The translations under genes were made by a program, and so were the position numbers. Positions 3,048-16,815 of a DNA stretch of 57,761 nt are shown piece by piece (the first letter of the stretch is position 1; each line of letters opens with the position of its first letter). The notes beneath the pieces are model-generated. The model ran no database searches. It was given only the letters and a program-made list of their open reading frames with translations, and was not told where the DNA came from. Source of the stretch: a virus (Duplodnaviria > Caudoviricetes). Location: positions 1 through 57,761 of the IMG/VR virus record IMGVR_UViG_3300034357_000936. One strand, 5' to 3'.

Positions 3048-3128
3048 TCGTAAGTCGTTCAGTATCAACGAGTTACGAGCGAGCCGCCCCGCTTTCGTCG
3101 TAAGTCGTTGTGTTTCAACGAGTTACAA
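3048..3128. repeat. Double-palindrome element 1
   Basis: 31-bp palindromes starting 3048 and 3098, GC spacer between. Confidence 0.95.
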
Positions 3129-3317
3129 AGGAAAGCCTCAAAGGGCTTTTTAGGCCGCAATCGCGCCAGTGTTCAATTGAACAACACGCAGCTTTTTTTA
3201 GTTAGCGCAAAACGTTTAAGGTGTTCAATTGAGCATCACGCAATCGCGCCATGCAAAAAAAGAAAGAAAAGAGAGAAAAGGATTTGCGCATTAGGCCAAA
3301 TCTGGTATAGTTAAAAC

Positions 3318-3476
3318 ATGAAAGAAAAAAGCGGATATGTGATGGCCCTTGAAAAAGGAATTGAAGCGTGGACCGAATTCCTTGGCGGTCGTTTGGTTTT
3401 TCGCGTGAAGCGTGAGGGAAAGATTCACACTTTCTCTAGTGATTCTTCCCTTGGAAAATGGGTTGTTTCTCTTTGA
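3318..3476 (+). CDS. 52-aa protein, paralog of 4106-4264
   Basis: TTGCGC(3284)-16-TATAGT-6-ATG; MKEKSGYVMALEKGIEAWTEF... Confidence 0.8.
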   Translation: MKEKSGYVMALEKGIEAWTEFLGGRLVFRVKREGKIHTFSSDSSLGKWVVSL

Positions 3477-3518
3477 GAAAAGCCCTTGCTTTTAATCCTT
3501 TTACCCTTACATTAGAAC

Positions 3519-3770
3519 ATGAACAAAATGAATCAATTCTGGAGCCTTGGAAAAACCTTTAAGAAAAGCGGAATGAAATACCGCGATCTGATCAACGAAA
3601 GCGGAAACGTTTTCATGACGCTGAAAGCAAAAAATGCCCTTTGGGTGGTGGACGGTTACAATGCCCGTCTTCGAAACAAGATCGAAAGGGAAGACCTTGA
3701 GAGGCAAGAGGCTGAGAGGGAAAACCTCGCCTATGGCGAGGCGGTCATGACCGCAATGGATGTCTGGTAA
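3519..3770 (+). CDS. Hypothetical protein
   Basis: TTGCTT(3486)-16-TACATT-5-ATG. Confidence 0.75.
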   Translation: MNKMNQFWSLGKTFKKSGMKYRDLINESGNVFMTLKAKNALWVVDGYNARLRNKIEREDLERQEAERENLAYGEAVMTAMDVW

Positions 3771-3794
3771 ATCGAAAAAATAACAAAGGAAAAA

Positions 3795-3822
3795 GGGGAG
3801 GCGAAAGCCTCCTCTTTTTTTT
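3795..3822 (+). terminator. Intrinsic terminator
   Basis: GGGGAGGC-GAAA-GCCTCCTC plus T-run. Confidence 0.8.
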
Positions 3823-3881
3823 AGTTAGCGCAAAATGGTTTTGGTGTTCATTTGAACAGCTTTTTTTCGTTTAAAAAGGAG

Positions 3882-3962
3882 TCGTAAGTCGTTGATACTT
3901 AACGAGTTACGAGGGAGCCGCCCCGCCCCCGTCGTAACTCGTTGAAAATGAACGAGTTACAA
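3882..3962. repeat. Double-palindrome element 2
   Basis: Palindromes at 3882 and 3932. Confidence 0.95.
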
Positions 3963-4105
3963 CATAATCAATTCAAGAGGTGTGCCAATGTCAACACCTT
4001 TTTTTCGGTGTTCAAATGGACACGGCGCAATCGCGTATAGATAAAAAAGGAAAAGAAAAGAAGAAATGCCCTTGCGCTTTTTCGGGAATATGGTATAGTT
4101 AAAAC

Positions 4106-4264
4106 ATGAAAGAACAAAACGGTTATCTGGTGGCGCTTGAAAAAGGTTTCGATGCATGGAGCGAATTTTCGATGGGAAGGCTCCGTTTCCGCGTCAAGCA
4201 TGAGGGCAAGATTCACACCTTTTCGAATGATTCCTCCCTCCTCTCTTGGATCAAATCCCTCTAA
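4106..4264 (+). CDS. 52-aa protein, paralog of 3318-3476
   Basis: TTGCGC(4072)-16-TATAGT-6-ATG; 36/52 identical by hand alignment. Confidence 0.8.
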   Translation: MKEQNGYLVALEKGFDAWSEFSMGRLRFRVKHEGKIHTFSNDSSLLSWIKSL

Positions 4265-4317
4265 TAAAAACAGCAAAAAAGATTTGCTTTTAATCGAATC
4301 GCGCCTATAGTCTCAAT

Positions 4318-4473
4318 ATGACAATCAAAGAACTTCAGCATGCCCTTTACATCTTCTCTTCAGACTCTAATGAGGAGGCGAAGGTGGTCCTTTTGATCGA
4401 CGGCAAAGAAATTCAAATCAATTCAATCTATCTTGATTGCAAAGAAGGAAAGGTGGAAATCGTTGGAGAATGA
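4318..4473 (+). CDS. 51-aa hypothetical protein
   Basis: TTGCTT(4284)-16-TATAGT-6-ATG; MTIKELQHAL... Confidence 0.7.
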   Translation: MTIKELQHALYIFSSDSNEEAKVVLLIDGKEIQINSIYLDCKEGKVEIVGE

Positions 4474-4727
4474 GCAGAACAAGCAAACGCCCCTACACAA
4501 AGTCTAAACGTTTCGATAAAACTTGCCGAAACAATGGATCTTGCCCATACTGTAAAAACAATCGTCTTCATAATTTCCATAGAGAAGGACAAAGAGCGAT
4601 GGATCAAATCAAAGAACAAGAGATTCCACAATTCCCAGAACCACAAGAATTACCACACTCACCAGATCTATCAGAATCTCCAGAATTCTTATACTTGCTT
4701 CCTGATGCTGAAACTCAGTCTCATTAA
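4470..4727 (+). CDS. Small basic Cys-containing phage protein with low-complexity PEP tail
   Basis: ATGA overlap with the previous stop; MSRTSKRPYTKSKRFDKTCRNNGSCPYC. Confidence 0.7.
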   Translation: MSRTSKRPYTKSKRFDKTCRNNGSCPYCKNNRLHNFHREGQRAMDQIKEQEIPQFPEPQELPHSPDLSESPEFLYLLPDAETQSH

Positions 4728-4971
4728 TCGGGGTTCACTATATCGCTATACAGCTATCTCGCTATATGGCAATGGGACCACGCCACAGGTGGGAACCATC
4801 AGAATTCCCAGAACCATCAGAAAAACCAGAAGGCCCGTTGGCCGAAGGGTTTTAATCCTATTTGGCCACGCTCAAATGAACTTCGCCCCTTTTGCTATTT
4901 GGCGGCGTTCAAATGATCTTGATCGTTAAAAACCTCTTGCTTTTCTTTCCATCCTCCATTATACTATTAAC

Positions 4972-5067
4972 ATGATTAAAGACATTCTAGATTTGGCGCT
5001 GGCCTTTGTTGTTGGTTCTTTTGTTATGATTTGTGCGGCTTGGTTTGCTCATGTCATTTGTCATTAA
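4972..5067 (+). CDS. 31-aa hydrophobic peptide, paralog of 2334-2429
   Basis: TTGCTT(4937)-17-TATACT-6-ATG; MIKDILDLALAFVVGSFVMICAAWFAHVICH. Confidence 0.7.
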   Translation: MIKDILDLALAFVVGSFVMICAAWFAHVICH

Positions 5068-5086
5068 AAATTCGTTAAGCTTAAAT

Positions 5087-5224
5087 ATGAAAAAAGAATG
5101 GTTTTACTTCTGGAACCCGCTTCTGGGTCGCGTCTGGTATAGTGACTATAACGAGGCCGTCGCCGCTCGCCGCGCCTATGAGTTGGCGGGGCATAAGGTG
5201 GGACCGCTCTTGCAAAAGAGCTAA
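5087..5224 (+). CDS. 45-aa hypothetical protein
   Basis: MKKEWFYFWNPLLGRVW...; stop just before element 3. Confidence 0.6.
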   Translation: MKKEWFYFWNPLLGRVWYSDYNEAVAARRAYELAGHKVGPLLQKS

Positions 5225-5232
5225 AAAACCCC

Positions 5233-5313
5233 TCGTAAGTCGCTGATTTTAAACGACTTATGAGGAGCGGCCCCCGGCCCCGCCGTAACTCGTTGAGAAT
5301 CAACGACTTATGA
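5233..5313. repeat. Double-palindrome element 3
   Basis: Palindromes at 5233 and 5283. Confidence 0.95.
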
Positions 5314-5400
5314 AAAGCCTAATCAAAGGATTTATTTACTATTTTGCAAAAATCGGGCATTTTTGACTTGCCTTTCCCCTTTCTTGGGTTACATTACCTC

Positions 5401-5520
5401 ATGAAAGAATTCCTTTGTAATTTCATTCTGTCCGCCAAGGGTGGGCATGTTTATCTTGGCCACGGTTACGAGTATACTTTTAGCGAAATTACTGAAATAG
5501 TTTTGGGCTTCTTTTCTTAA
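5401..5520 (+). CDS. 39-aa hypothetical protein
   Basis: TTGCCT(5368)-16-TACATT-5-ATG. Confidence 0.65.
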   Translation: MKEFLCNFILSAKGGHVYLGHGYEYTFSEITEIVLGFFS

Positions 5521-5562
5521 ATAAAACACTTGATCTTTTCCGCAAATAACCTATTGTTCCCT

Positions 5563-5709
5563 ATGAACGAAATCATCAAAGCCGAACTGAACGAATACAT
5601 CGATTACCTTGATTCCCTCGACTATCCCGAACAGGATGACGCACGGTGGGAAGCGATGGCAGAAGAACACGAAAACATTCAATACGGCATGGCCGTGATG
5701 GGAGTCTAA
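5563..5709 (+). CDS. 48-aa acidic protein
   Basis: TTGATC(5530)-16-TATTGT-5-ATG; MNEIIKAELNEYIDYLDSLD... Confidence 0.7.
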   Translation: MNEIIKAELNEYIDYLDSLDYPEQDDARWEAMAEEHENIQYGMAVMGV

Positions 5710-5724
5710 AACACACAAAAGAAC

Positions 5725-6318
5725 ATGAGATTCCTTGCCTTTTTCCTTGCCGTTAGCTTTCTTATCTATCAAGAGATTAAAAGCTTTTATCCTAAAGACT
5801 TCACCGAACAAGTCTTCGAAGAGACAACCGTTGATCCCCAACCTTTGGAGGATTACCCTAAAGAGAGATCCTTTGTGCCAATTCTCCCTTTGGAAAAGAA
5901 GGAAGATGATGAACTCATTTCTTTAATTAAAGAATTCGAAAGCTTTAGCCCCACGGTCTATAAATGCCAAGGTGGAGTTGATACCATTGGATATGGCATC
6001 ACTGATCCAGAGGTTGTAAAAAGGGGAATCCTCACAGAGGAAGAGGCTTCCGAAATTCTCAAAGAAGAAATAAACGTTCATCTTTCTTATGTGGATTCTT
6101 TTGTAAAGAAACCAATAACAGAACAACAAAGGAATGCCCTAGCTTCTTTCTCCTTTAATTGCGGAGATGGTAGTCTAAAGAAAATCGCAGCTAGAATTAA
6201 TAGTGGCAAAATGAAGGAAGCAGGTGAAGCGATCCTCTTGTATGTCTATGCTAAAGGAAAACCATCTAATGGTTTGAAAAAGCGTAGAGAGATAGAATAT
6301 CAAATGTTTAATAGTTAA
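5725..6318 (+). CDS. GH24 (T4/P21-type) lysozyme with N-terminal hydrophobic anchor
   Basis: IKEFESFSPTVYKCQGGVDTIGYG (E-x8-C-x5-T), ALASFSFNCG, GLKKRREIE. Confidence 0.88.
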   Translation: MRFLAFFLAVSFLIYQEIKSFYPKDFTEQVFEETTVDPQPLEDYPKERSFVPILPLEKKEDDELISLIKEFESFSPTVYKCQGGVDTIGYGITDPEVVKRGILTEEEASEILKEEINVHLSYVDSFVKKPITEQQRNALASFSFNCGDGSLKKIAARINSGKMKEAGEAILLYVYAKGKPSNGLKKRREIEYQMFNS

Positions 6319-6334
6319 CGTGTAACAAAGCTCT

Positions 6335-6415
6335 TCGTAAGTCGCTGGTTTTCAACGACTTACGGGGCGCGGCCCCGCCGCCCGTCGTAACTCGTTAAGG
6401 CTTAACGACTTACAA
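6335..6415. repeat. Double-palindrome element 4
   Basis: Palindromes at 6335 and 6385; consensus spacer GGCGCGGCCCCGCCGCCCG. Confidence 0.95.
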
Positions 6416-6498
6416 ACAATTTGGCATCACGCGATTGCGCCATGCGAAAAAAGACAGAAAAAGATTTGCGTTCTCCCTTTGGTATGGTATAGTTGGAC

Positions 6499-6678
6499 AT
6501 GAAAATTGAAGAAGGAACGGAAGTTGTGTTCAAAGGAAAATGGTGGATCGTGCAAGAGTTTTGCCCATCTTATGATGGCGTTGAAGGTTTTGATGAAGTG
6601 GTGATTGCTGATGAAGATGGAGAAGAAAAGGTGGCTTTTGTTTATCAAATCGATACCGTTCTCCCTTCTTTTTCTTGA
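6499..6678 (+). CDS. Hypothetical acidic protein
   Basis: TTGCGT(6466)-16-TATAGT-5-ATG. Confidence 0.7.
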   Translation: MKIEEGTEVVFKGKWWIVQEFCPSYDGVEGFDEVVIADEDGEEKVAFVYQIDTVLPSFS

Positions 6679-6703
6679 CAAATAACAAAAACCCTGATAT
6701 AAT
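6675..6703 (+). promoter_or_regulatory. Perfect sigma70 consensus promoter (example of the cassette promoters)
   Basis: TTGACA-17-TATAAT, ATG 6 nt later. Confidence 0.85.
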
Positions 6704-6709
6704 AACAGT

Positions 6710-6925
6710 ATGAAGAAGGCAATTTATTGGAAGCATGGTGAGGACAAGATGAGCGTTAAGGAGCTTGATAAAGCGCTTAAAGATATAAATGAGAATATCG
6801 TGAGCGAAGAGAAAAAACAGTCAGGGAGTGAACAGACTAAACTTGTGTTTCCTTCTATTCTCCCTCTCTTGCTCAAAGCGCAGCAAGGTTTGATGAGGCT
6901 GAGAGCAGAAAAAATCGGTAAATGA
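6710..6925 (+). CDS. Hypothetical protein
   Basis: Leaderless behind the consensus promoter. Confidence 0.7.
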   Translation: MKKAIYWKHGEDKMSVKELDKALKDINENIVSEEKKQSGSEQTKLVFPSILPLLLKAQQGLMRLRAEKIGK

Positions 6926-6944
6926 GGAACTCTAATATAATAGC

Positions 6945-7184
6945 ATGAGCCAACACTCCAACATCTGTAAGGAAGTCCTCTCCAAAGCGGTTAAATTTAA
7001 TCTGTCGCATGGACAAACGTCAGAATTGCTGAACGCTATTTTTGCCGCTGCTGAATATGAGTGGGAAGTGTCCGAAACAGAAATACCCAATCTTTCTTAT
7101 TCTTATCTTCGCACTCAAAAGGACGGATTGTATGGAGTGTCTCACGATCAAATTGATTCTTGGATGGAAACTTCAGCTAAGTAA
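6945..7184 (+). CDS. Hypothetical protein
   Basis: 79-aa ORF in operon. Confidence 0.65.
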   Translation: MSQHSNICKEVLSKAVKFNLSHGQTSELLNAIFAAAEYEWEVSETEIPNLSYSYLRTQKDGLYGVSHDQIDSWMETSAK

Positions 7185-7211
7185 CTCTAATATAAAAGGA
7201 ACGATAAAAAG

Positions 7212-7283
7212 GGGGGTGTAGCTAATTGGTCTAGCGCTCGACTCATAATCGAAGGAAAGCAGGTTCGATTCCTGTCGCCCCCA
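7212..7283 (+). tRNA. tRNA with CAT anticodon (elongator Met or Ile2)
   Basis: GGGGGTG/CGCCCCC acceptor, TCGA-CTCATAA-TCGA, GGTTCGATTCC; lacks initiator features. Confidence 0.8.
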
Positions 7284-7293
7284 TCTCTCACCT

Positions 7294-7374
7294 ACATAAC
7301 TCGTTGAAAATAAACCACTTACAGGGCGCGGCCCCGCCGCCCTTCATAACTCGTTGATAATAAAAGACTTACGA
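7294..7374. repeat. Double-palindrome element 5
   Basis: Palindromes at 7294 and 7344. Confidence 0.9.
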
Positions 7375-7454
7375 CACAAAGAATATCACGCAATCGCGCC
7401 AAAAAACATCATTAAACTACTTGCATCTTTCCTTTCTTATGTTATCTTTGATAC

Positions 7455-7628
7455 ATGACTGAAGAACAAGCATACGAACACGGTTTTTACGCAACTCTCA
7501 CCTTGAACCAAATGCCAGATGACGATGATCTTCTTGCGGCGTTTGATCAGGGCGAGCGGGACAGGCAGGAGGTCGCTGCCGTTGAGATGGCTCACGAAGC
7601 TTACGCGATGGAACTTTACGGCCATTGA
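7455..7628 (+). CDS. 57-aa acidic protein
   Basis: TTGCAT(7421)-16-TATCTT-6-ATG; MTEEQAYEHGFYATL... Confidence 0.7.
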   Translation: MTEEQAYEHGFYATLTLNQMPDDDDLLAAFDQGERDRQEVAAVEMAHEAYAMELYGH

Positions 7629-7637
7629 TAGCTTTCC

Positions 7638-7718
7638 CTGTAACTCCTTGATATTCAAGGGGTTACGGGGCGCGGCCCCGCCGCTGGTCGCAACTCGTTG
7701 AGAATCAACGAATTAGAC
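7638..7718. repeat. Double-palindrome element 6
   Basis: Palindromes at 7638 and 7688. Confidence 0.92.
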
Positions 7719-7790
7719 TATACGCAATCGCGCCATAAAGAAAGATGATGAATTAATTTGCACTTTCCTTTTCTTGGGTTACATTATCAC

Positions 7791-8009
7791 ATGTTCAAAT
7801 ACGAAGTCATTCAGCATCTTGTTGGTCCTTGGCACACTCCCGGTATGGGGAAGGTCGTTTATACTTGGTTTTCCAAGTCTCCCAAGGAGGCTTGCGCTCG
7901 CCGTGGAGCTTTCGCGGCTCATTTCGATGGGGATGACTCCCTCCCCTGCGTGATTGAGGAGGTTCGCCTTTGGCGCAACGGCAAGCTTCTGTTTTCGAAG
8001 TGGTCATAA
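7791..8009 (+). CDS. Hypothetical protein
   Basis: TTGCAC(7758)-16-TACATT-5-ATG; stop codon lies inside the first arm of element 7. Confidence 0.75.
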   Translation: MFKYEVIQHLVGPWHTPGMGKVVYTWFSKSPKEACARRGAFAAHFDGDDSLPCVIEEVRLWRNGKLLFSKWS

Positions 8010-8084
8010 GTGGTTGAGGCTCAAAGCCTTACGGCGAGCCGCCCCGCCGCCCGTCGCAACTCGTTGAGAAGCAACGACTTACGA
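8004..8084. repeat. Double-palindrome element 7
   Basis: Palindromes at 8004 and 8054. Confidence 0.9.
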
Positions 8085-8164
8085 CATAAACAAAATTCCG
8101 CCGCTTTATAAGAAAAAAGAGAGAAAAGGATTTGCATTCTTTCTTTAGAGTGGTATAGTTGGAC

Positions 8165-8356
8165 ATGCAATACATCATCAAAGCTGAGAGCGGTATCCGT
8201 GGAATTTGTAATCTTGGAGCGGGGGTTTCGGAAAAAGCCGCTTGGGAAGACGCTTTTGGCCCCAAGCCTTGGACCGACTACCAGAAAAAAACTGCTAAAA
8301 AATGCTGGTGCGAGCAGGAGGAGTCTGATGAACCCGTGAGCTATTCTGGCTACTAA
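8165..8356 (+). CDS. Hypothetical protein
   Basis: TTGCAT(8132)-16-TATAGT-5-ATG. Confidence 0.72.
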   Translation: MQYIIKAESGIRGICNLGAGVSEKAAWEDAFGPKPWTDYQKKTAKKCWCEQEESDEPVSYSGY

Positions 8357-8364
8357 TCGCAATC

Positions 8365-8445
8365 TCGTAAGTCGTTGAAAATAAACGACTTACGGGGCGC
8401 GGCCCCGCCGCCCGTCATAACTCCTTCATTATCAATGACTTACAA
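8365..8445. repeat. Double-palindrome element 8
   Basis: Palindromes at 8365 and 8415. Confidence 0.95.
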
Positions 8446-8645
8446 AGATGTGCCTCCAAAGGCTTTTTGCCCCGCAATCGCGCCATAAGCTATTTACAGA
8501 AACACGAATGATCTTGGCGCAATCGCGCCATAAAGATATTTGAAGAAAACGCTTGTATTCTTTGCTCAATAAGGCTTGGTTGTCTTATTGAATTATTTAA
8601 AGAAAGAATCTTGACAAACACCGAAAACCTGCTAAATTTACCGCC

Positions 8646-9089
8646 ATGAACCTACTGAAAGAAACCATCTCCGTTTTTAATAGTTACAACCTTGTTCCCC
8701 ACAACATCCTTTTTATCGGTTGTGAGGAAACTGGTCACCGCTGTTCTTGGGAACAGTTTCAAACCCTTGCGGATCGCGAATACAATGGCGGTTACGGTTG
8801 TGCGGAGGTTTTGACCGACCTTGTGATTATCTTTGTTGACGGAACGAAGCTCTCCCGTAGTGAATACGATGGTTCTGAGTGGTGGAGCGTCAAAAAGCCC
8901 TTCGTGATGCCAGAAGAAACCAAGGAAATCGATTCTCTTTTTGTTGAGAATTATAATTATCGTTTTCAAGACCTTAAAGAAGATTATTGGAATGATGTTG
9001 CCAGCGATGGAGAAGCCGATGGAGACGCCCTTGCGAGTGCTGGTTTTGGCACGGATGAGGACTATGGGTTCTTTGGTGATGAGTATTGA
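8646..9089 (+). CDS. Phage hypothetical protein with acidic tail (DGDALASAGFGTDEDYG)
   Basis: TTGACA(8611)-16-TAAATT-7-ATG; EYDGSEWW motif. Confidence 0.8.
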   Translation: MNLLKETISVFNSYNLVPHNILFIGCEETGHRCSWEQFQTLADREYNGGYGCAEVLTDLVIIFVDGTKLSRSEYDGSEWWSVKKPFVMPEETKEIDSLFVENYNYRFQDLKEDYWNDVASDGEADGDALASAGFGTDEDYGFFGDEY

Positions 9090-9099
9090 TTTTTAATCG

Positions 9100-9180
9100 T
9101 TGTAAGGTGTTGAGCATCAGCGTCTTACGACGGCGCACCGCCCGTCCCGTCGTAACTCGTTCATTCTTAACGACTTAGCC
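9100..9180. repeat. Double-palindrome element 9 (diverged)
   Basis: Palindromes at 9100 and 9150. Confidence 0.88.
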
Positions 9181-9253
9181 TATACGCAATCGCGCCATAT
9201 AAAATAAAGAAGAAAAGAGTTGAACCTTTCCTTTCTTCTGTTACATTACCTAC

Positions 9254-9439
9254 ATGAACAACGACCTATTCGAAGAAATCGAAAACACCGCTGAATGCCT
9301 TTTCGAAAAAGAAGAAGCAGATCGAGACTACGATACTGTTGCGAAAGAAATCGCTTCGCGCTATCCCGGCGCATCTTGGAGCAGTATTCGTCTTCAACTT
9401 GAATACATCGTTTCCGATATTGAAAACCTCGCCGCCTAA
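9254..9439 (+). CDS. Acidic hypothetical protein
   Basis: TTGAAC(9220)-16-TACATT-6-ATG. Confidence 0.75.
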   Translation: MNNDLFEEIENTAECLFEKEEADRDYDTVAKEIASRYPGASWSSIRLQLEYIVSDIENLAA

Positions 9440-9443
9440 TACC

Positions 9444-9671
9444 ATGCAAACCGAACAAGAAATCAAACTCTCATATCATCGCCTAAAACACGGTAGCCTC
9501 TATGATCGTGGCTCCGCTGATGCATACTACTGGCGTGATGCCGATCCGCACTATTACCCCAACGGAACCTACAATCCTCCCCGCATTGGAAAAGAGGAAT
9601 TGTCCAAAGAACAAATTGAGGAATACATGTTCGCCTATAACAACGAAACCGACAGAAAGGAATACCAATAA
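9444..9671 (+). CDS. Phage hypothetical protein (HGSLYDRGSADAYY motif)
   Basis: Motif recalled from other phage small proteins; operon spacing. Confidence 0.75.
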   Translation: MQTEQEIKLSYHRLKHGSLYDRGSADAYYWRDADPHYYPNGTYNPPRIGKEELSKEQIEEYMFAYNNETDRKEYQ

Positions 9672-9672
9672 C

Positions 9673-9858: not shown

Positions 9859-9861
9859 AAT

Positions 9862-9970: not shown

Positions 9971-10051
9971 TCGTAACTCGTTGATCGTTAACGACTTACG
10001 GGGCGCGGCCCCGCCGCCTGTCGTAACTCCTTGATAATCAACGACTTAGCC
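9971..10051. repeat. Double-palindrome element 10
   Basis: Palindromes at 9971 and 10021. Confidence 0.95.
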
Positions 10052-10417: not shown

Positions 10418-10474
10418 TGGGTAAAGGGGCGCGGTCTCACATTATGTGACGCCGCGCCCCAACTGTTTCATATA

Positions 10475-10840
10475 ATGAAAAAACGAGTTTACTTTAATCT
10501 GCACAAACGCCTTTTCTCTGTTCAAGAGAAGGTGAATGGTCAATGGAAGGTTGTCGGTCACACTGATGACATCACTCTTTACAATGTTACCTTTAAGGTA
10601 AGCGAGGCAGGGCGGCAAAGGGTTCTTAGAGAAAAGAAGAAGAATGTTCATGCTTTTGTTGAGGGAACTCTTTCCCCTTCTCCTCTTCAGTGCCACAGTC
10701 CACTAACCATTCGATACAATCCCTACAAGTGTGGATCGTTTACCTCTGGAGAATTCAACGTCAAGGAGGCGGGATCGGTTCGCCTTTCAAAGATCGATGG
10801 CAAGCCAACTATACAAGCCGATTTCTTTTATACAGCATGA
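10475..10840 (+). CDS. Conserved phage hypothetical protein
   Basis: VYFNLHK...KVSEAGRQRVLREKKKNVHAFVEG. Confidence 0.8.
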   Translation: MKKRVYFNLHKRLFSVQEKVNGQWKVVGHTDDITLYNVTFKVSEAGRQRVLREKKKNVHAFVEGTLSPSPLQCHSPLTIRYNPYKCGSFTSGEFNVKEAGSVRLSKIDGKPTIQADFFYTA

Positions 10841-11139
10841 TCGCAACTATCATTTATCCAAAGGAACTCGCTTTTCCTTTTAGCATTCCCTGTATTGGGG
10901 AATGCAATCAAGCCAATAAGATGAAATTTGCCGAAATGGTAACGGAATGTCTTATGGGCGATGGATGGGAAACGGAAACAGTAGTTTCTAATAACCTAGA
11001 AGTTAGGCCAATGAGATTTGGGGATATGATCCTATTCCCTGATGGAGAGACTTGGGCAGTAGGAAAAGATGATTTCTTTCTTTTAGATAGAAGGAAAATG
11101 ATTGACTTTCAAATCGCGCCAAGCTATTCCTATAACTAA
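10837..11139 (+). CDS. Hypothetical protein
   Basis: ATGA overlap with the previous gene. Confidence 0.7.
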   Translation: MIATIIYPKELAFPFSIPCIGECNQANKMKFAEMVTECLMGDGWETETVVSNNLEVRPMRFGDMILFPDGETWAVGKDDFFLLDRRKMIDFQIAPSYSYN

Positions 11140-11146
11140 ATCTACC

Positions 11147-11227
11147 TCGTAAGTCGTTGAGGTTCAGCGACTTACGGGGCGCGGCCCCGCCGCCCGTCGT
11201 AACTCGTTGACACTTAAGCACTTACAA
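11147..11227. repeat. Double-palindrome element 11
   Basis: Palindromes at 11147 and 11197. Confidence 0.95.
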
Positions 11228-11289
11228 CAAAAGCATTCTTTTCTTTCAAAAGGCTGTTGACATTTACAGAAGGTGTGTTATATTACCCC

Positions 11290-11466
11290 ATGCAGAACAT
11301 CGAAGATCATGCTGGCCGCTTTTGCGGATTCACCACCAAAACTCAAAAGAAAACCCATTGTGCAAAAGTATATCGAATTACTTCGCACTACATCAAGATT
11401 CAAGACCGTAACGACGGCAAGAACTACAAATATAATCGGAATTCTATTTTGGATTGTCGGTTCTAA
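11290..11466 (+). CDS. Hypothetical protein
   Basis: TTGACA(11257)-16-TATATT-5-ATG. Confidence 0.7.
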   Translation: MQNIEDHAGRFCGFTTKTQKKTHCAKVYRITSHYIKIQDRNDGKNYKYNRNSILDCRF

Positions 11467-11544
11467 TTAAAGTTTTCCAACAAAGAGTTTATCCGTTTTG
11501 CTCAGTTGGAATAATATAAACGGAACCTTTTAAATCGCCGCCCG

Positions 11545-11625
11545 TCGTAACTCTTTGATAATCAACAACTTACGACGAGGGCCGGGGCCGCGCCTCATAA
11601 CTCGTTTACTTTCAACGACTTATAT
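11545..11625. repeat. Double-palindrome element 12 (spacer inverted)
   Basis: Palindromes at 11545 and 11595; spacer CGAGGGCCGGGGCCGCGCC is the reverse complement of the consensus. Confidence 0.9.
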
Positions 11626-11716
11626 CATTTTCCTGTTTGGGGCCATTTTCTTAAATAAGAAAAACACTTTTTTGAAGAAAGAGGTTGCATTATTCCAGAA
11701 AGGCATTACATTAACT

Positions 11717-11882
11717 ATGTAACGGATCGCAAGCTATCCGTGAATCACCGATAAATCTCGCGAAGCAAATCTATTAGTAGGGGGAATATCCCGAACAAAA
11801 AACATCCGCAAGGGTTGGAAAATGCCTGTAAGCTGATTAATTATCTGAAACGGTGAGGGTTGGAAAAGATAAACGCCAACAC
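11717..11882 (+). ncRNA. Candidate structured non-coding RNA
   Basis: Own promoter TTGCAT(11685)-16-TACATT, then ATG-TAA; helices ACGGAT/ATCCGT, TCACCG/CGGTGA, GTTGG/CCAAC and two GCAA tetraloops. Confidence 0.5.
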
Positions 11883-11924
11883 AAAATCTATTGACAAACT
11901 TCTATTCTTGCATTACATTACTCC

Positions 11925-12401
11925 ATGCATTACTCCATGACAAAAAACACTCTTCTTCTCTTGGTTGACGAAAGCCCTACTTTTCGTAATTTGATTGCGA
12001 ATGAACTTATCACTAATTTGGATTACCCCATGCCATCCTCAACTATCGTAAGCCTGTTGGAGGAAAGCCGCACGTTCCAAAATTGGGCCATTGATCAGTT
12101 CGACTGCGAAATTACCATCAGCAATAACTTTAAAAACCTCATCGACACCACGCTTAATGCAGTGAAAGATAGTCTGCGCCGTGGGAACAAAATCGAAGCC
12201 ATCAAAGGTTTGCGCGATGCCTCTAAGGACGAGCAAATTCGTAAGGCATTGCTGAAAGAGTTCTTTCATTTCGCCAATGAATATAGACGCAAGGGAGATG
12301 ACATCTCTTATAAAAACTATTACTCAGATACGGAACATTTCACCTTGAAATTCTCACGCGATTTGGTGGAACACATCGAAGATTGTATCGATCCCTTTTA
12401 A
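11925..12401 (+). CDS. Hypothetical protein with bL12 C-terminal-like motif
   Basis: TTGACA(11891)-17-TACATT-5-ATG; GNKIEAIKGLRDAS. Confidence 0.7.
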   Translation: MHYSMTKNTLLLLVDESPTFRNLIANELITNLDYPMPSSTIVSLLEESRTFQNWAIDQFDCEITISNNFKNLIDTTLNAVKDSLRRGNKIEAIKGLRDASKDEQIRKALLKEFFHFANEYRRKGDDISYKNYYSDTEHFTLKFSRDLVEHIEDCIDPF

Positions 12402-12410
12402 TTTCTAACC

Positions 12411-12491
12411 TCGTAACTCGCTTAAAATCAACGAGTTACGGGGCGGGGCGGGGCCGCGAGTCATAACTCGCTCATAATCAACGACTTACGA
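12411..12491. repeat. Double-palindrome element 13 (spacer inverted)
   Basis: Palindromes at 12411 and 12461; spacer GGCGGGGCGGGGCCGCGAG. Confidence 0.92.
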
Positions 12492-12603
12492 CAGAAGCGA
12501 TTCAAGATCCATGCCAACCGCATGGATTTTTTTTGCGATATGGTGTAAAATAAATTGCCTCTTTTCTTTGACATTTAGACGAAGATGGTTTAATGTTGAA
12601 CAT

Positions 12604-12777
12604 ATGAAAGACGAACTCTTCCACAACGAATCCCTCCTTGACATCCTTGACGACATCGCCTCTTTTCGCGGAGACTACCGCTTCGGCAGCAGTCACTCCC
12701 GCTTTGATCGCGAACGCGACGAGCAGGAAGATGATCAGGAAAATACCGAATCTGATCACTTTTCTTTTGACAAATAA
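12604..12777 (+). CDS. Acidic hypothetical protein
   Basis: TTGACA(12568)-17-TAATGT-7-ATG. Confidence 0.65.
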   Translation: MKDELFHNESLLDILDDIASFRGDYRFGSSHSRFDRERDEQEDDQENTESDHFSFDK

Positions 12778-12839
12778 GATAAATCGTGATACATTACCTC
12801 TCGTTAAAGAACCAAAACAAACCTAACTAAAAAAAACAT

Positions 12840-13835
12840 ATGATCGTTATCGGAAAAAACCACGTTACCGCTGAACAACTCTTGAACGTTGTCACTCCTC
12901 CAGAAACTGAGTCCTTCAAGCCTCTCCCTCACCACATTTTGGTGGAATACACTCGCGAAGCTTTGAACGATGCTGGTTTCCAGATCGTGGAAGAGGACCA
13001 CGTTGTCGCCAAGGACGGTTTGCGCTACTTCGGCGGATTCGCCCTGTCTCACACTTCCCTTTCTGGTGATCGTCGCCAGATCGTTTGCGGTGTTCGCAAT
13101 GCCAACGACAAGTCTTTTCCTGCTGCCATTTGTATCGGCAACCGCATGATGGTTTGCGAAAACCTTTGCTTCTCTTCTGAAGAAAAGCTTACTCGCCGCC
13201 ACACCAAAAATATCATGCGCGACCTTCGCGGCGTGATCGTTTGCGCGATCACTCGTTTGATCAAGGCATGGAATGACATGGAGACCCGTATCAAGGCTTA
13301 CGAGAACGTCACTCTTGACGAACAGCAAGCCGCGCACCTGTTGCTTGGTTTGATCGACAATAATGGTCTTCCCGCCCGTGACTTCTACAATACGATTCTT
13401 TGCTGGCGCAATCCCGAAAATGCCGCAACGGACATTGTCGAGCGTAATACTTTCATCATCGAACAGGAAGACGGTTTCGGGTTTGATGAGGAAGGCTATC
13501 AGCAAGCCCTTGCTGCCAAGCAAGCCGAACTGATCGCGGAATTCGGCGGTGATACTTTGTGGGGTCTTTACAATGCGGTGACTCACGTTCTCAAGGGTTC
13601 CTGCCTTGACAAACTCCCACAACGCACGATGAACATGCAAGCCCTGTTTGACGGGTTCGCGGGAGTCGTCGTCTCCGTTGGCGAGGCGATCAACACGGCG
13701 GGTCTTGACGAAAACGATCAAGAGACCGACGAGGCGCGAGGTGAGTTTATCGAAACCTTCGGTGAGGTTGTCGAAGAGGTTGTCGAGGATTCTGACTCTA
13801 ACATTGACACCATCGCGATGCTGATCGAACGCTAA
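12840..13835 (+). CDS. DUF932-family protein with acidic C-terminus
   Basis: TESFKPLPH, RYFGG, GVRNANDKSF, VCENLCFS, RRHT, LWGLYNAVT. Confidence 0.8.
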   Translation: MIVIGKNHVTAEQLLNVVTPPETESFKPLPHHILVEYTREALNDAGFQIVEEDHVVAKDGLRYFGGFALSHTSLSGDRRQIVCGVRNANDKSFPAAICIGNRMMVCENLCFSSEEKLTRRHTKNIMRDLRGVIVCAITRLIKAWNDMETRIKAYENVTLDEQQAAHLLLGLIDNNGLPARDFYNTILCWRNPENAATDIVERNTFIIEQEDGFGFDEEGYQQALAAKQAELIAEFGGDTLWGLYNAVTHVLKGSCLDKLPQRTMNMQALFDGFAGVVVSVGEAINTAGLDENDQETDEARGEFIETFGEVVEEVVEDSDSNIDTIAMLIER

Positions 13836-13861
13836 CAGAACCACAACTTGGGAAGCTCGGG

Positions 13862-13890
13862 AGGGGAGGCGAAAGCCTCCCCTTTTCTTT
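13862..13890 (+). terminator. Intrinsic terminator
   Basis: AGGGGAGGC-GAAA-GCCTCCCCT plus T-run. Confidence 0.85.
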
Positions 13891-13907
13891 TGCTGCAACA
13901 ACTTAAG

Positions 13908-13988
13908 TCATAACTCGTTGAACGTCAACGAGTTACGAGGGCGCGGCCCCCCGCCCGTCGTAAGTCCCTGAGAATCAACGACTTACGA
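13908..13988. repeat. Double-palindrome element 14
   Basis: Palindromes at 13908 and 13958. Confidence 0.95.
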
Positions 13989-14078
13989 AGAAGCCTATTC
14001 AAGATCCATGCCAAGCTTGCAGAAATTCTTTTCTGTTTTTTGTGTTTGACTTCTCCCCTGTTTGCCTTACCTTTACAA

Positions 14079-14267
14079 ATGAAAGAAATCACTGTCGAGA
14101 TAATCAATCAATACGGAGTTGAACGGATTCGCGTTGTCGATCAAAAACTGCGTGAAACAATCACTTCTTTAACTGGAAGAAAAACCATTTTGCAAAGCGA
14201 CATCAAAGCTCTAAAGGAACTTGGCTTTAGCGTTCGCATGAAATCCGTTGAATCGGTCGAGCTTTGA
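14079..14267 (+). CDS. Small phage protein
   Basis: TTGACT(14046)-16-TACCTT-5-ATG; YGVERI...LTGRKT...IKALKELGF. Confidence 0.75.
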   Translation: MKEITVEIINQYGVERIRVVDQKLRETITSLTGRKTILQSDIKALKELGFSVRMKSVESVEL

Positions 14268-14304
14268 CCTTGACAAAACCCAATCCTGTGTTATACTTCT
14301 CACG

Positions 14305-14994
14305 ATGAAACTACTGAACAGCGGAAACGCAAAAACAAAGAAAGGGGAAGCTGTGGGTTGGAAAACCTTCGGAATCCATCTCGCCCCATCGCGCCTGTCT
14401 GGCTTTAACACTTGCCAACATGCGACGGTTGGTTGTGCTGCCTCTTGCCTTAATACGGCTGGAAGAGGCGCAATGTCGAGCGTCCAAAAGGCAAGGATTA
14501 ATAAAACCCTTTTCTTCTTTAAAAACAAAGAAGGATTCCTCGCTGAACTTCGAAAAGAAATTCGGGCCGCTATCAAATCTAGCGAGCGGCAAGGGTTGAA
14601 TCCATGTTTTAGGCTTAACCTCACTTCGGACATTCCCTTTCACAAGTTTGGAATCATGGAAGAATTTCCAGAGGTGCAATTTTATGATTACACCAAGGAT
14701 TATAAAAGGGCGCTACAATACATGCATGGCGAACTGCCGAAAAACTACCATCTGACTTTCTCCCGCGCCGAATCGGAAGAGAATCAACAGCAAGCCAAAT
14801 CCCTTCTTTCTATGGGAATGAATGTTGCGGCTGTGTTTCGCGAATACATTCCAGCAACGTGGAACGGGTTTAACGTTGTTGACGGTGATGAAAATGACTT
14901 GCGGTTTCTTGATCCGCAAGGCGTGATTGTCGGATTGGTTGAGAAGGGAAAAGCTAAACAAGATTCCTCTGGCTTTGTCCTTTCTCCCGCATGA
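14305..14994 (+). CDS. Gp88-like Cys-cluster (radical-SAM-like) phage protein
   Basis: TTGACA(14270)-16-TATACT-7-ATG; NTCQHATVGCAASCL, RLNLTSDI, FYDYTK, DLRFLD. Confidence 0.75.
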   Translation: MKLLNSGNAKTKKGEAVGWKTFGIHLAPSRLSGFNTCQHATVGCAASCLNTAGRGAMSSVQKARINKTLFFFKNKEGFLAELRKEIRAAIKSSERQGLNPCFRLNLTSDIPFHKFGIMEEFPEVQFYDYTKDYKRALQYMHGELPKNYHLTFSRAESEENQQQAKSLLSMGMNVAAVFREYIPATWNGFNVVDGDENDLRFLDPQGVIVGLVEKGKAKQDSSGFVLSPA

Positions 14995-15058
14995 ATGAAC
15001 TCATAATTTTACTTGCTTTTTGCGTCTTAGGGTATATGGTGTCAAAAAACTAAGCAAC

Positions 15059-15134
15059 GGGGCGGTAGTCCAATGGCAGAGACAGGAGACTTAAAATCTC
15101 TACAGTATGGGTTCGAATCCCATTCGCCCTACCA
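15059..15134 (+). tRNA. tRNA-Leu(TAA), short variable loop
   Basis: GGAGA-CTTAAAA-TCTCT anticodon arm, GGTTCGAATCC, encoded CCA. Confidence 0.85.
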
Positions 15135-15143
15135 ATTTTTAAA

Positions 15144-15220
15144 GCACCCTTAGCTCAATCGGATAGAGCAACGGATTTCTAATCCGTAGGTTACAGGTTC
15201 GAATCCTGTAGGGTGTGCCA
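15144..15220 (+). tRNA. tRNA-Arg(TCT)
   Basis: ACGGA-TTTCTAA-TCCGT, canonical cloverleaf, encoded CCA. Confidence 0.93.
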
Positions 15221-15241
15221 CTCTTAACAGAAAAAAAACAA

Positions 15242-15400
15242 ATGAACTATTCTAATAAATTCTGTTTTATTCAAAAGAAAGAAGAAGCATGGATTGTTTC
15301 CATGTATCAACGCGAAGGCAACGAGGCCAAACTAATTAAAGAGATTGCCACCTCTTCGGAAGGGGAAGCCCGTAAAGCTCAAAAAGAATTCTTTCAATAA
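15242..15400 (+). CDS. 52-aa hypothetical protein
   Basis: ORF between tRNAs. Confidence 0.55.
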   Translation: MNYSNKFCFIQKKEEAWIVSMYQREGNEAKLIKEIATSSEGEARKAQKEFFQ

Positions 15401-15415
15401 AAAACGCCTTTTAAA

Positions 15416-15490
15416 TGGCGCGTAGCTCACACTGGTGAGAGCATCCGCCTTATAAGCGGGAGGTTGCGGGTTCAATTCCCGCCGCGCCAA
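15416..15490 (+). tRNA. tRNA-Ile(TAT)
   Basis: TGGCGCG/CGCGCCA acceptor, TCCGC-CTTATAA-GCGGG, GGTTCAATTCC. Confidence 0.88.
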
Positions 15491-15506
15491 CCTTTTCAGA
15501 AAAGAT

Positions 15507-15587
15507 TCATAACTCCTTGAGTATCAACGAGTTACGAGGGGGCGGCCCCGCCCCCGTCGTAAGTCCTTCAAAATAAACGACTTACGA
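15507..15587. repeat. Double-palindrome element 15 (point of convergent transcription)
   Basis: Palindromes at 15507 and 15557. Confidence 0.93.
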
Positions 15588-15596
15588 AGCGGGAGT

Positions 15597-15782
15597 TTAA
15601 TAGTCTATGTCTGCGTCAACTTCGGGATGCATTTGGCCCGAATAATGAATAGGACATTCCTGCCAATAATCGAAAGGATTACAAATCCAGCCATTACTAC
15701 AAGGGCATTCCTTTCCATCTTCAAGAGCCGCGTGAGCAACCTGACTTGGATAGGCTAAAATTAGATCTTGAAAATCATTCAT
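15597..15782 (-). CDS. Small Cys-rich protein
   Basis: CPCSNGWIC...ECPIH...HPE. Confidence 0.65.
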   Translation of the reverse strand: MNDFQDLILAYPSQVAHAALEDGKECPCSNGWICNPFDYWQECPIHYSGQMHPEVDADIDY

Positions 15783-16021
15783 GCTTTAATATAACTGAAT
15801 TCGCTAAAAAGAGCAACAAAAAGTTCATCTCTTTCATTAAGATAGTCGTTAACTTCAACATCTTTGCCACGATACTTTTCGTGAAGATAATCGCGAGCAA
15901 TTTCTGTCAGATAGCCATTAACGTTTCCTTCTGGAATTCTGCCAGCATCGACAAGTTCCTTTAGCGTCAAGCCCGTCCAATTAAATGGGGCATCAAGAAG
16001 TTTTTTGGCAATTTCTTTCAT
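15779..16021 (-). CDS. Hypothetical protein
   Basis: MKEIAKKLL..., overlaps both neighbours. Confidence 0.65.
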   Translation of the reverse strand: MKEIAKKLLDAPFNWTGLTLKELVDAGRIPEGNVNGYLTEIARDYLHEKYRGKDVEVNDYLNERDELFVALFSEFSYIKA

Positions 16022-16188
16022 TAGTTTGGTTTTACAAAATAAGCTTGATTCATAAACGTGGACAGCTCCATGTTCCGCCCGTCCTTTTCGTAGCCGTAAT
16101 AAAGCCAACCGTGAAAGGTTGTCATCCACACAAGTCTCCACCCCTTCTCTTTAAGAAGTTCGCTTTTTTGTTCAAAGGTCTTTCTCAT
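16021..16188 (-). CDS. Hypothetical protein
   Basis: MRKTFEQKSELLKEKGW... Confidence 0.55.
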   Translation of the reverse strand: MRKTFEQKSELLKEKGWRLVWMTTFHGWLYYGYEKDGRNMELSTFMNQAYFVKPN

Positions 16189-16303
16189 TTTTTCGGCAGT
16201 GCGATTTGTTTTGTTGTTTCTTTTTGTCTGGAACGCACTTCGTTCCCATGTTGAGAACGAAAGCGGCTCCACGTTTAACCTTGTAGGGTGGAATGCTTTT
16301 CAT
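16172..16303 (-). CDS. 43-aa basic protein (leaderless)
   Basis: TTGAAC-17-TATTAT-5-ATG on the minus strand; MKSIPPYKVKRG... Confidence 0.6.
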   Translation of the reverse strand: MKSIPPYKVKRGAAFVLNMGTKCVPDKKKQQNKSHCRKNEKDL

Positions 16304-16350
16304 GCACTATAATACAATGAAAAGCCAAAAAGTTCAATCCTTTTCTTCGA

Positions 16351-16620
16351 TTAGATCGTGATTTTAATAAACACGTTTTTGTCGAAAGAATAGGAGGCAG
16401 GATAAGTATAACCAGAGGAATCAAGAGTTCGACCTCCCATCGTCATGCTGGAAACGCTATCGACGCGCACCACATGAACATAATTTGACCATTCCTTTTT
16501 GGCAACAACCAGAACCAAGTCTCCCTCCTTGATGTCGTAGCTGTTAAGATCCCTTTGAAGATCTTTGAGTTCTTTTTCCAAAAAGGCGATTTGACGTTCG
16601 ATTTCTTCTTTAGTTTGCAT
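16351..16620 (-). CDS. Hypothetical protein (leaderless)
   Basis: TTGCGC-16-TATATT-6-ATG on the minus strand. Confidence 0.7.
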   Translation of the reverse strand: MQTKEEIERQIAFLEKELKDLQRDLNSYDIKEGDLVLVVAKKEWSNYVHVVRVDSVSSMTMGGRTLDSSGYTYPASYSFDKNVFIKITI

Positions 16621-16683
16621 GAGGGTAATATACCACCTTTCCGCAAAAGCGCAAGAGAAAAGATAAAGGAAAAAGGCGATTCT

Positions 16684-16815
16684 CTGTAAGTCGTTGATAA
16701 CCAACAAGTTACGAGCCTCGCCCCCCGCCCCGCCTCATAACTCCTTCACACTCAACGACTTACGACAACAGAAAAATCATGCAGTCATAACTACCTGATA
16801 CTCAACGAGTTACGG
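16684..16815. repeat. Element 16: three palindromes
   Basis: Palindromes at 16684, 16735 and 16785 (51 and 50 bp apart). Confidence 0.9.

Follow-up and report, generated by a model that had tools for sequence, protein, structure and literature searches.

In BIME-1, a bacterial interspersed mosaic element (BIME) of E. coli, a site for integration host factor (IHF) lies between two hairpins of the repetitive extragenic palindrome (REP) type at the ends of operons, and REPs are described as terminators, mRNA stabilisers and topological insulators (PMC3333891). In T4-type phages, the promoter early stem-loop (PeSL) units consist of a stem-loop and an early promoter, are located in a plastic early region, and are associated with gene swaps that have their junctions in the repeated promoter (PMC4122927). 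The consensus of the IHF site is WATCAR-N4-TTR, in which WATCAR is located between two proline-induced kinks 9 bp apart and TTR is located in the flanking clamp (bioRxiv 10.1101/382655). The Bacteroidetes have expanded HU families, including an integration host factor (PMC5499826). The present report deals with a composite element that occurs 16 times in the early region of a large phage of the IMG/VR database (record IMGVR_UViG_3300034357_000936; the whole stretch of 57,761 bp is termed the window) and that consists of two 31-bp palindromes with a GC-rich spacer between them. We tentatively propose, from the sequences compared here, that a DNA-bending dimer of the host, of the HU/IHF type (DNABII), recognises the palindromes as duplex DNA, and that these sites bracket the GC-rich spacer at the boundaries of gene cassettes.

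Paired palindromes in the window and in other phages

The 16 elements contain 33 palindromes of 31 bp, which are confined to positions 3048-16815. All 16 are located, by printing the sequence, at the starts that a first-pass annotation of this DNA had given for them. When the window is scanned with the consensus of that annotation and up to 3 mismatches are allowed, 24 matches are obtained, all of them at 3048-16765, as compared with 0.00 expected from 100 dinucleotide-preserving shuffles. The other 9 of the 33 palindromes are more degenerate, yet they are located at the offsets given for them. The spacing of 50 bp between the starts of the two palindromes is exact in 15 of the 16 elements, as had been claimed, and in the last one, three palindromes start at 16684, 16735 and 16785 (51 and 50 bp apart). 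The statement that no element is present outside 3-17 kb also holds, because the sole further match, to the core and with 3 mismatches, is located at 31570 and corresponds to the level of shuffled sequences (mean 0.85 per shuffle). A 19-bp GC spacer with a polarity exists as described, but this polarity is not uniform, because the spacer is reversed in two of the 16 elements (11545 and 12411). The spacers are about 90% GC in the window, and the 19-bp sequence is letter-perfect in three elements (6335, 8365 and 11147).

The core of seven bases at the centre of each palindrome had been described as varying widely between copies. This view must be corrected, because most copies have GA-NNN-TC at these positions, so that the arms are 14 bp long and surround a centre of only 3 nt. 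In contrast, the observation that the arms tolerate uncompensated mismatches is correct. Of the 396 arm pairs, 305 are Watson-Crick pairs and 17 are G.T pairs, and 18 of the 33 copies have C.C or G.G at position 7.

An exact 25-nt core pattern is detected in at least 117 stretches of IMG/VR contigs, so that a scan of further phages, as suggested in the first-pass annotation, finds the motif to be widespread. Among the matches listed, the palindromes of other phages are again paired, with a spacing that is specific to the lineage: 106 pairs have a spacing of 50 bp, 48 of 58 bp, 34 of 51-52 bp, 24 of 42 bp and 11 of 48-49 bp. Among the same matches, the spacer sequences are wholly different between the spacing classes, and all of them are GC-rich (64-96%). 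In one complete relative (G002), the elements are confined to 64.1-73.8 kb, and in another (G001), they are located at 24.0-27.0 kb and 140.3-143.0 kb, with one additional copy at 9.2 kb. The rIIA proteins of these two complete relatives are 28% and 34% identical to that of the window, and the half-site of the palindrome is nearly the same.

The spacer of the 58-bp class is a stable hairpin (mean z score -3.1, with 24 of 24 below -1), which is followed by a T-run and is oriented with the genes. Judged by these features, it is a true intrinsic terminator placed between two palindromes. A hairpin is not a general property of the spacer, because the 19-nt spacers of the class found in the window (137 distinct ones, 89% GC) fold like their shuffles (mean z score -0.28). 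At loci of the 58-bp class (for example L035 and L065), both orientations of the 3-nt terminator loop are found in a single genome for the same direction of transcription. The loop triplets are TTC in 10 cases, GAA in 5, TAC in 4 and GTA in 3, and this reversal looks like the result of flip-flop inversions.

A sequence logo was constructed from 279 partner palindromes (among the matches listed), which were picked by their position beside a good copy and not by their own match. The strongest positions are T4 A5 A6 and T12 G13 A14, together with their mirrors T18 C19 A20 and T26 T27 A28. Position 7 shows no preference between G and C (0.46 each), and 75% of the palindromes have A or T as the central base. 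The half-site is YAA-N4-TTGA, or in mirrored form TCAA-N4-TTR, and it contains TCAR-N4-TTR in one fixed register, with A/T-rich bases before it. The exact IHF consensus WATCAR-N4-TTR has 29 matches on both strands of the window. Eighteen of them are located inside the palindromes, all in a single register, and the palindromes cover 1,023 bp, or 1.8% of the length. The density of these matches is 17.6 per kb inside the palindromes and 0.19 per kb outside them, which is a difference of about 90-fold. The core of the consensus, TCAR-N4-TTR, is matched by 42 of the 66 half-sites of the window. These matches suggest that the half-site corresponds to the IHF consensus in a form symmetric around the dyad, which is a lead with quantitative support and not proof. 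If the symmetry centre and the dyad coincide, the palindrome would be the preferred site of a homodimer. The lack of a preference between G and C at position 7 and the A/T centre fit a minor-groove, indirect or shape readout.

The pairing of the two arms was analysed for 689 distinct phage copies from the window and the at least 117 IMG/VR stretches. The frequency of Watson-Crick pairs at all 15 mirrored positions equals the one expected when the two half-sites are independent (for example, 0.59 versus 0.58 and 0.78 versus 0.77), and the largest excesses are 0.51 versus 0.43 and 0.54 versus 0.46. The bases beyond the palindrome add no stem in the phage copies. On the sense strand of the window, mismatches of the A.C type (30) are more frequent than G.T pairs (17). 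The symmetry is that of two conserved half-sites and not a product of selection for pairing, because the pairing agrees with the independent expectation, the flanks are unpaired, and mismatches occur in the middle of the arms. When the elements of the 58-bp class are oriented by their T-run (n=24), the palindrome downstream of it has fewer core mismatches (0.46) than the upstream palindrome (1.17). The core mismatches of the two palindromes are similar in the window (1.2 and 1.8). The palindrome downstream of the terminator of the 58-bp class should rarely be transcribed, and a role in RNA would not predict that it is the better conserved one. The pairing analysis, the unpaired flanks and the well-kept palindrome past the T-run bear out the preference of the first-pass annotation for a protein site in duplex DNA over an RNA hairpin. 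A stable stem, a T-run and covariation, which together characterise an intrinsic terminator, are found only in the spacer of the 58-bp class and in the bacterial copies described below.

Bacterial copies

When 596 Gb of bacterial genomes are scanned with an exact 27-nt pattern, eight stretches are found, which represent four metagenome-assembled genomes (MAGs) of Fibrobacter, two MAGs of Bacteroidota and small phage-like contigs. A host from the Planctomycetes-Verrucomicrobia-Chlamydiae group had been guessed earlier; the bacterial copies lie instead in Bacteroidota and Fibrobacter. Three Fibrobacter loci resemble one another in their flanking open reading frames (ORFs) and look orthologous, and an M23 peptidase (at L122) is the only flanking protein to which a family is given. 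The exact copies in the Bacteroidota MAGs follow the 3' end of a tRNA gene. One of them has a tRNA 3' fragment on one side and a tyrosine integrase gene on the other, a position at which accessory bending sites of an att arm are expected. A search of 15 bacterial loci against Rfam detects the tRNAs next to the copies and nothing else.

The bacterial genomes were also scanned with a relaxed pattern, in which four N positions are freed and up to 1 mismatch is allowed, with the reversed pattern as a control. A Bacteroidota MAG of 5.4 Mb (G006) contains 137 copies, and three Fibrobacter MAGs contain 11, 8 and 3 copies, whereas the control gives 0 hits in all of them; the motif is thus regarded as native to some bacteria. 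A copy is present in 29 of 41 genomes of the family of G006 (control, 2 of 41) and in 22 of 151 sampled genomes of its phylum, the Bacteroidota, mostly with 1-2 copies each (control, 10 of 151). In 24 copies of G006, the central bases that were left free in the search are T (0.92), A or T (0.96) and A (0.71). The centre of these copies is thus TTGAT-W-ATCAA, which is a fully symmetric form of WATCAA, and the N4 bases vary. The bacterial copies are located between convergent genes or after tRNAs, and A-runs and T-runs lie alongside many of them.

At six loci of G006 (L135, L141, L142, L144, L150 and L153), the copies form the centre of longer perfect palindromes that consist of 7-nt tandem repeats of the ATGATGA type, which suggests a repeat family growing around the motif. 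Another Bacteroidota genome (G086) contains 15 copies of the relaxed motif on two contigs. Thirteen of them are one identical 27-mer and two differ from it by two letters, and these copies probably belong to a repeat, such as the end of an insertion sequence.

Surroundings of the elements and cassette turnover

According to the first-pass annotation, a stop codon or the end of a tRNA gene is usually no more than about 20 bp from the start of an element. This holds for 10 of the 16 elements, which begin 8-17 bp past such an end or overlap it, but not for the other six, which are located 73-113 bp off or after a separate terminator. Element 3 (5233..5313, + strand) starts 9 bp past the stop codon of ORF 5033-5224, and element 4 (6335..6415, +), which has the consensus spacer, starts 17 bp past that of the lysozyme-like ORF 5725-6318. 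Element 5 (7294..7374, +), the first palindrome of which is degenerate, starts 11 bp past the tRNA-Met gene (7212-7283), and element 15 (15507..15587, +), the spacer of which is a perfect 18-bp GC palindrome, starts 15 bp past the tRNA-Ile gene (15416-15492). The report of a stop codon within an arm is accurate, because the first arm of element 7 (8004..8084, +) contains the stop codon of ORF 7758-8009.

A separate hairpin with a T-run adjoins five elements as judged by eye, and two of these terminators are confirmed by a terminator scan. A T-run hairpin follows element 1 (3048..3128, +; palindrome, 19-bp GC spacer, palindrome), where it is recognised by eye, and element 13 (12411..12491, -), the spacer polarity of which is inverted, and an intrinsic terminator at 13859-13886 precedes element 14 (13908..13988, +). 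The same scan finds none of the 33 palindromes of the window to be terminator-like or to have a T-run. A generic sigma-70 scan of the window gives a result expected by chance (26 sites found versus 27.8 expected), and the generic terminator scan is likewise at the level of chance overall.

The claim that a new promoter follows the elements is valid for 11 of the 16 elements, in which a promoter-like match, scored with ad hoc patterns, is located 30-276 bp past the second palindrome, but not for the other five. In 9 of the 11 elements followed by a promoter, the second palindrome ends 30-60 bp before the promoter-like site. A 14-bp GC box (ACGCAATCGCGCCA) has 9 copies on the + strand at 3155-10068 when up to 2 mismatches are allowed, and it is located 4-27 bp past the second palindrome in 7 of the 16 elements. 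Thus, element 6 (7638..7718, +) is followed by the box at 7722..7735 (+) and a promoter-like site at 7758-7786, element 9 (9100..9180, +) by the box at 9184-9197 and a promoter-like site at 9220-9248, and element 10 (9971..10051, +) by the box at 10055-10068 and a promoter-like site at 10091-10119. Four copies of the box end 22-23 bp before a -35-like hexamer, and the inner four bases of the copy at 6429 are inverted. Element 11 (11147..11227, +), which has the consensus spacer, is followed by a promoter-like site at 11257-11285. The remaining elements are element 2 (3882..3962, +), which is found both by the consensus scan and in the sequence print, element 8 (8365..8445, +), which has the consensus spacer, element 12 (11545..11625, -), the spacer polarity of which is inverted, and element 16 (16684..16815, +), which has three palindromes and forms the end of the array. 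In three other phage lineages, a stop codon or terminator is followed by the element, an A/T-rich stretch, a promoter, and a start codon a few bases past the -10-like box.

Start codons in the early region are located 3-8 nt past a -10-like box (3280-12800 in the window, and loci L082 and L085), so that a leader would be absent, or almost absent, from many early mRNAs. Both a sigma-70-like and a Bacteroidetes-type reading of the early promoters are possible. An unrelated 16-bp palindrome of the GTGTTCA-N-TTGAACAC type has 7 copies with up to 2 mismatches, all of them within 1727-4023, and it often adjoins a conserved T-run and a TAGTTAGCRCAAA box (3 copies). This set of palindromes at the start of the array looks like operators for a different regulator. 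When positions 1-20000 of the window are searched against Rfam, the tRNAs alone pass the gathering score, and no element is overlapped by a match at E values up to 1. A sub-threshold match to PrrB/RsmZ at 3726-3821 (30.9 bits versus a gathering score of 44, E value 8e-4), which covers the end of ORF 3519-3770 and the terminator that follows it, is probably due to chance.

The first-pass annotation considered that the elements may be sites of shuffling by a tyrosine recombinase or in the manner of integrons. This does not agree with the variable 3-nt centre, with the failure to find a recombinase, or with the position of a swap junction in a promoter. Its statement that no recombinase is present in the window is correct as far as Phage_integrase (PF00589) and Resolvase (PF00239) are concerned, and neither family has a match in the two complete relatives. 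The Y1 transposase family (PF01797) also has no match in the window, G001 or G002. A link to the REP-associated tyrosine transposases was rejected, because the Y1_Tnp genes of two bacterial MAGs (five in G003 and one in G006) are not flanked by the motif and none is present in these three phages.

Cassette shuffling occurs. A phage stretch (L114) that shares 99% identity with the window over its first 1.5 kb has other small ORFs between copies of the same promoter. The swap joins inside this repeated promoter, and the two sequences become homologous again in the region ahead of the first palindrome. The element of this stretch that matches window position 3048 is located at 6979-7113 and has three palindromes, the extra one being upstream and connected by a 23-nt spacer that is not GC-rich. 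Two relatives of the 58-bp class (L051 and L065) differ in cassette content, and the breaks are 115-470 bp from the elements. As to whether breakpoints between relatives fall at the elements, cassettes do turn over, but among the breaks resolved here none is located inside a palindrome, and the junction of L114 is in the promoter. Apparent joints between elements in DNA sequencing runs were rejected as recombination products, because their sides are only 23-27 letters long and are located at repeats, and because several contain a spacer of the 58-bp class, which comes from other phages present in these samples. DNA contigs that end at elements were likewise dismissed as repeat-induced assembly breaks.

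The whole record is linear, and its completeness is estimated by CheckV to be about 42%. The ORFs of the window encode rIIA and rIIB and a RuvB-like AAA+ protein, for which the PHROGs matches are clamp-loader families; the ORF set also matches the RuvB C-terminal domain. Pfam matches include PhoH, ThyX, dCMP deaminase, glycosyltransferases and two HNH endonucleases, and eight tRNA genes are present. The GC content is 41-48% in the array region (2000-18000), 42-48% in the part that contains the elements (3048-16815) and 26-39% in the segments beyond 18 kb. Near-identical DNA is present in lake-water metagenomes (13 runs with 13 study codes, 0.89-0.97 of the sampled words, six possible source samples aside), and the contigs of three such runs span the entire 57,761 bp. 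The nearest cultured phages are less than 35% identical (two proteins compared). A 96-nt query of the element has no match in cultured phages at E values up to 1, and a tRNA-Arg gene is the only part of the 14-kb array region that matches them. One metatranscriptome run holds 0.23 of the words of the window. Its contigs are 90-97% alike and located in gene bodies, with one across the last element; being assembled, they cannot show RNA ends, and the uncovered parts carry no meaning. One of these contigs skips 173 bp in ORF 4534-4929 (4644-4818 in the window), probably because of a deletion in that strain.

Proposed mechanism, alternatives and known systems

In the mechanism that we propose, a homodimer of a host protein of the HU/IHF family, as the candidate binder, would bind each two-fold symmetric 31-bp palindrome, and each bound dimer would bend its palindrome sharply. 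The paired sites, which are 42-58 bp apart depending on the lineage (50 bp in the window), bracket a stiff GC-rich spacer, which in one lineage is a terminator. The composite is placed after the stop codon or tRNA of a cassette and, in most cases, 30-60 bp upstream of the next early promoter. Occupancy of both sites would fold the boundary into a compact nucleoprotein unit. This unit may separate the strongly transcribed early cassettes, as a stop or as a topological insulator, and may offer bent upstream DNA to the next promoter, possibly aiding it. Upstream IHF sites help promoters elsewhere.

Neither Bac_DNA_binding (PF00216) nor HU-HIG (PF18291) has a match in the window, G001 or G002, and a phage-encoded HU protein was therefore rejected as the binder. 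HU-HIG matches are present in two of the bacterial MAGs (G003 and G006). The binder is probably a highly conserved host factor rather than a phage protein, because the half-site is constant while the rIIA proteins are only 28-34% identical, and because no phage HU gene is found.

Several points weigh against an HU/IHF-type binder. The comparison with the IHF consensus was made after the logo had been seen, and the agreement of the symmetry centre with the IHF dyad depends in part on a kink that we take to be located before the last base of WATCAR. The N4 bases of the phage copies read S-T-C-G, which is beyond what the IHF consensus needs, and two TCGT heptads are another way of reading the half-site, which would fit a different protein. 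Spacings of 42, 50 and 58 bp keep no single helical phase, and the distance to the next promoter in the window varies over the 30-276 bp given above. The motif is restricted to certain lineages and not general in the Bacteroidota, which is odd for a universal nucleoid protein. In addition, the flanks of the bacterial copies pair at 83 of 144 positions, as compared with 54.5 in shuffles (0 of 2000 reach this value), and their N4 bases pair at 52 of 96, as compared with 38.2 (1 of 2000 reaches it). The bacterial motif is thus the upper part of terminator-like hairpins, which are themselves under selection, and at least there a reading in terms of RNA or single-stranded DNA is possible. This selection for a hairpin in bacteria is the main fact that a DNA-bending dimer does not fully explain.

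The palindromes might be sites for another sequence-specific DNA-binding protein, although we regard this as somewhat doubtful. Such a protein would be either a phage regulator of the ribbon-helix-helix type, for which each palindrome offers four 7-bp repeats of the TCGT type arranged two and two, or host gyrase, which would act on the GC-rich centre between bendable arms. The evidence for duplex recognition applies equally to these proteins. Each half-site has two TCGT words 7 bp apart, and the N4 bases, which are free in the IHF consensus, are conserved in phages. A small regulator was possibly missed, because 25 of the 41 Pfam families matched by the 101 ORFs of the window are listed, and BIME-2 repeats bind gyrase (PMC3333891). 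However, the bacterial copies keep GTAA and TTGAT-W-ATCAA and lack the TCGT words, a phage protein should have diverged like rIIA while the site has remained constant, and no DNA-binding family is present among the 25 families listed.

It is unlikely that the palindromes function in RNA, as hairpins at the 3' ends of early mRNAs and tRNA precursors that would contribute to a compound terminator, serve for processing or stabilise the 3' end. The position of 10 of the 16 elements directly past or across a stop codon or tRNA end would suit such a role, and so would the bacterial copies, which are covarying hairpins with A- and T-runs and of which several directly follow tRNA genes. The spacer of the 58-bp class is a gene-oriented hairpin with a T-run, and the elements fold on paper, either as hairpins or by long-range pairing between the two palindromes. 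Yet the 689 phage copies lack covariation and any sign of selection for pairing, for which reason this explanation is ranked low. Over half of the window copies have C.C or G.G in mid-stem, A.C exceeds G.T on the sense strand, and no palindrome has a T-run of its own, while five elements have a separate canonical terminator alongside. Furthermore, conservation is highest in the palindrome that lies past the terminator, and no Rfam family matches the element.

In a further view, which we consider quite improbable, a bending protein of bacteria of the Fibrobacteres-Chlorobi-Bacteroidetes (FCB) group would bind the palindrome with high affinity, as a landing pad that can be transferred between genomes. 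Phages would have copied this landing pad in pairs, both as insulated cassette boundaries and, in order to counter defence, as a sponge for HU-family proteins. The motif would then top terminator hairpins in bacteria, and the dozens of sites on the first-expressed DNA could soak up host HU proteins. The expanded HU-HIG forms, which are proposed to intercept invading DNA, could be among them.

Finally, it is very unlikely that the element is mobile or recombinogenic DNA of the REP/BIME or attC kind that spreads between bacteria and phages, causes cassettes to be gained and lost, and does little for the phage itself. In favour of this view, bacterial copy numbers are patchy (one genome has 137, its relatives have 0-9, and G086 has 15, 13 of them identical), the number of palindromes per element differs between near-identical phages (3 in L114 versus 2 in the window), close relatives differ in cassette content and the loop triplets of the 58-bp class occur in both orientations, but no integrase, resolvase or Y1 transposase is found in the window or the two complete relatives, the Y1 genes of the bacterial MAGs are not flanked by the motif, the resolved breakpoints are in promoters or gene bodies, and a near-identical half-site across very distant phages argues for selection.

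If the palindromes are indeed bound by an HU/IHF-type dimer, the element would be a phage counterpart of BIME, that is, a compact, sequence-defined module that brings an architectural protein of the host to gene boundaries and is common to many uncultivated phages and some of their likely hosts. For the HU/IHF-family proteins of Bacteroidota and Fibrobacter, which are poorly understood, it would supply a definite DNA target. In metagenomic phage contigs, it would mark the early plastic regions, and, as a motif common to phage and bacterium, it would be a possible signal for linking phages to hosts. It would also provide a testable model of how packed and strongly transcribed early cassettes are kept independent. 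Whatever the binder is, a 14-bp half-site that is nearly unchanged across phages with about 30% protein identity represents a strong unexplained constraint.

No description or name of the element was found in full-text searches limited to open-access literature. In comparison with site-specific recombination systems, the element resembles dif, loxP and attC in having inverted arms around a short centre and in following cassette genes in one orientation. In those systems, however, the overlap of 6-8 bp is identical between sites, whereas the element has a 3-nt centre and a partly conserved GA/TC that differ between copies. Unlike integron cassettes, the phage cassettes carry their own promoters, and no recombinase is found in the window or the two complete relatives. 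The IHF sites of att arms and promoters share WATCAR-N4-TTR in a fixed register with the palindromes, and the bacterial copy between a tRNA fragment and an integrase gene is in keeping with this likeness. The known IHF sites are asymmetric and have the consensus in one half (bioRxiv 10.1101/382655), whereas the phage sites are symmetric, paired and arrayed, and are predicted from sequence alone.

The PeSL units are similar in being a composite boundary of stem-loop and promoter between small ORFs, which is seen in the window and in the three other lineages, and the swap junction of L114 is in the promoter. They differ in that their stem-loops are plain, lineage-specific terminators, whereas the palindromes lack a T-run and are conserved in sequence across phages with about 30% identity in rIIA. 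BIME-1 and the repetitive IHF-binding palindromic (RIP) elements are, like the present element, extragenic mosaic repeats located 3' of transcription units, which consist of palindromes, a linker and an IHF-type site and which vary in the number of units between strains. The differences are that the palindromes have no GTAG, the phage motif being GTAA on both sides, that a Y1 transposase gene is not found in the window, G001 or G002, and that BIME-1 is enterobacterial, whereas the phage element occurs in phages and bacteria of the FCB group. In addition, the order is inverted, because the phage element has a site, a GC spacer and a site, and the palindromes themselves carry the IHF-like consensus. 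Taken together, the sequence features suggest that the element belongs with the mosaic boundary repeats that use an architectural protein, and its closest named analogue would be BIME-1 of E. coli with the order of hairpin and IHF site inverted.

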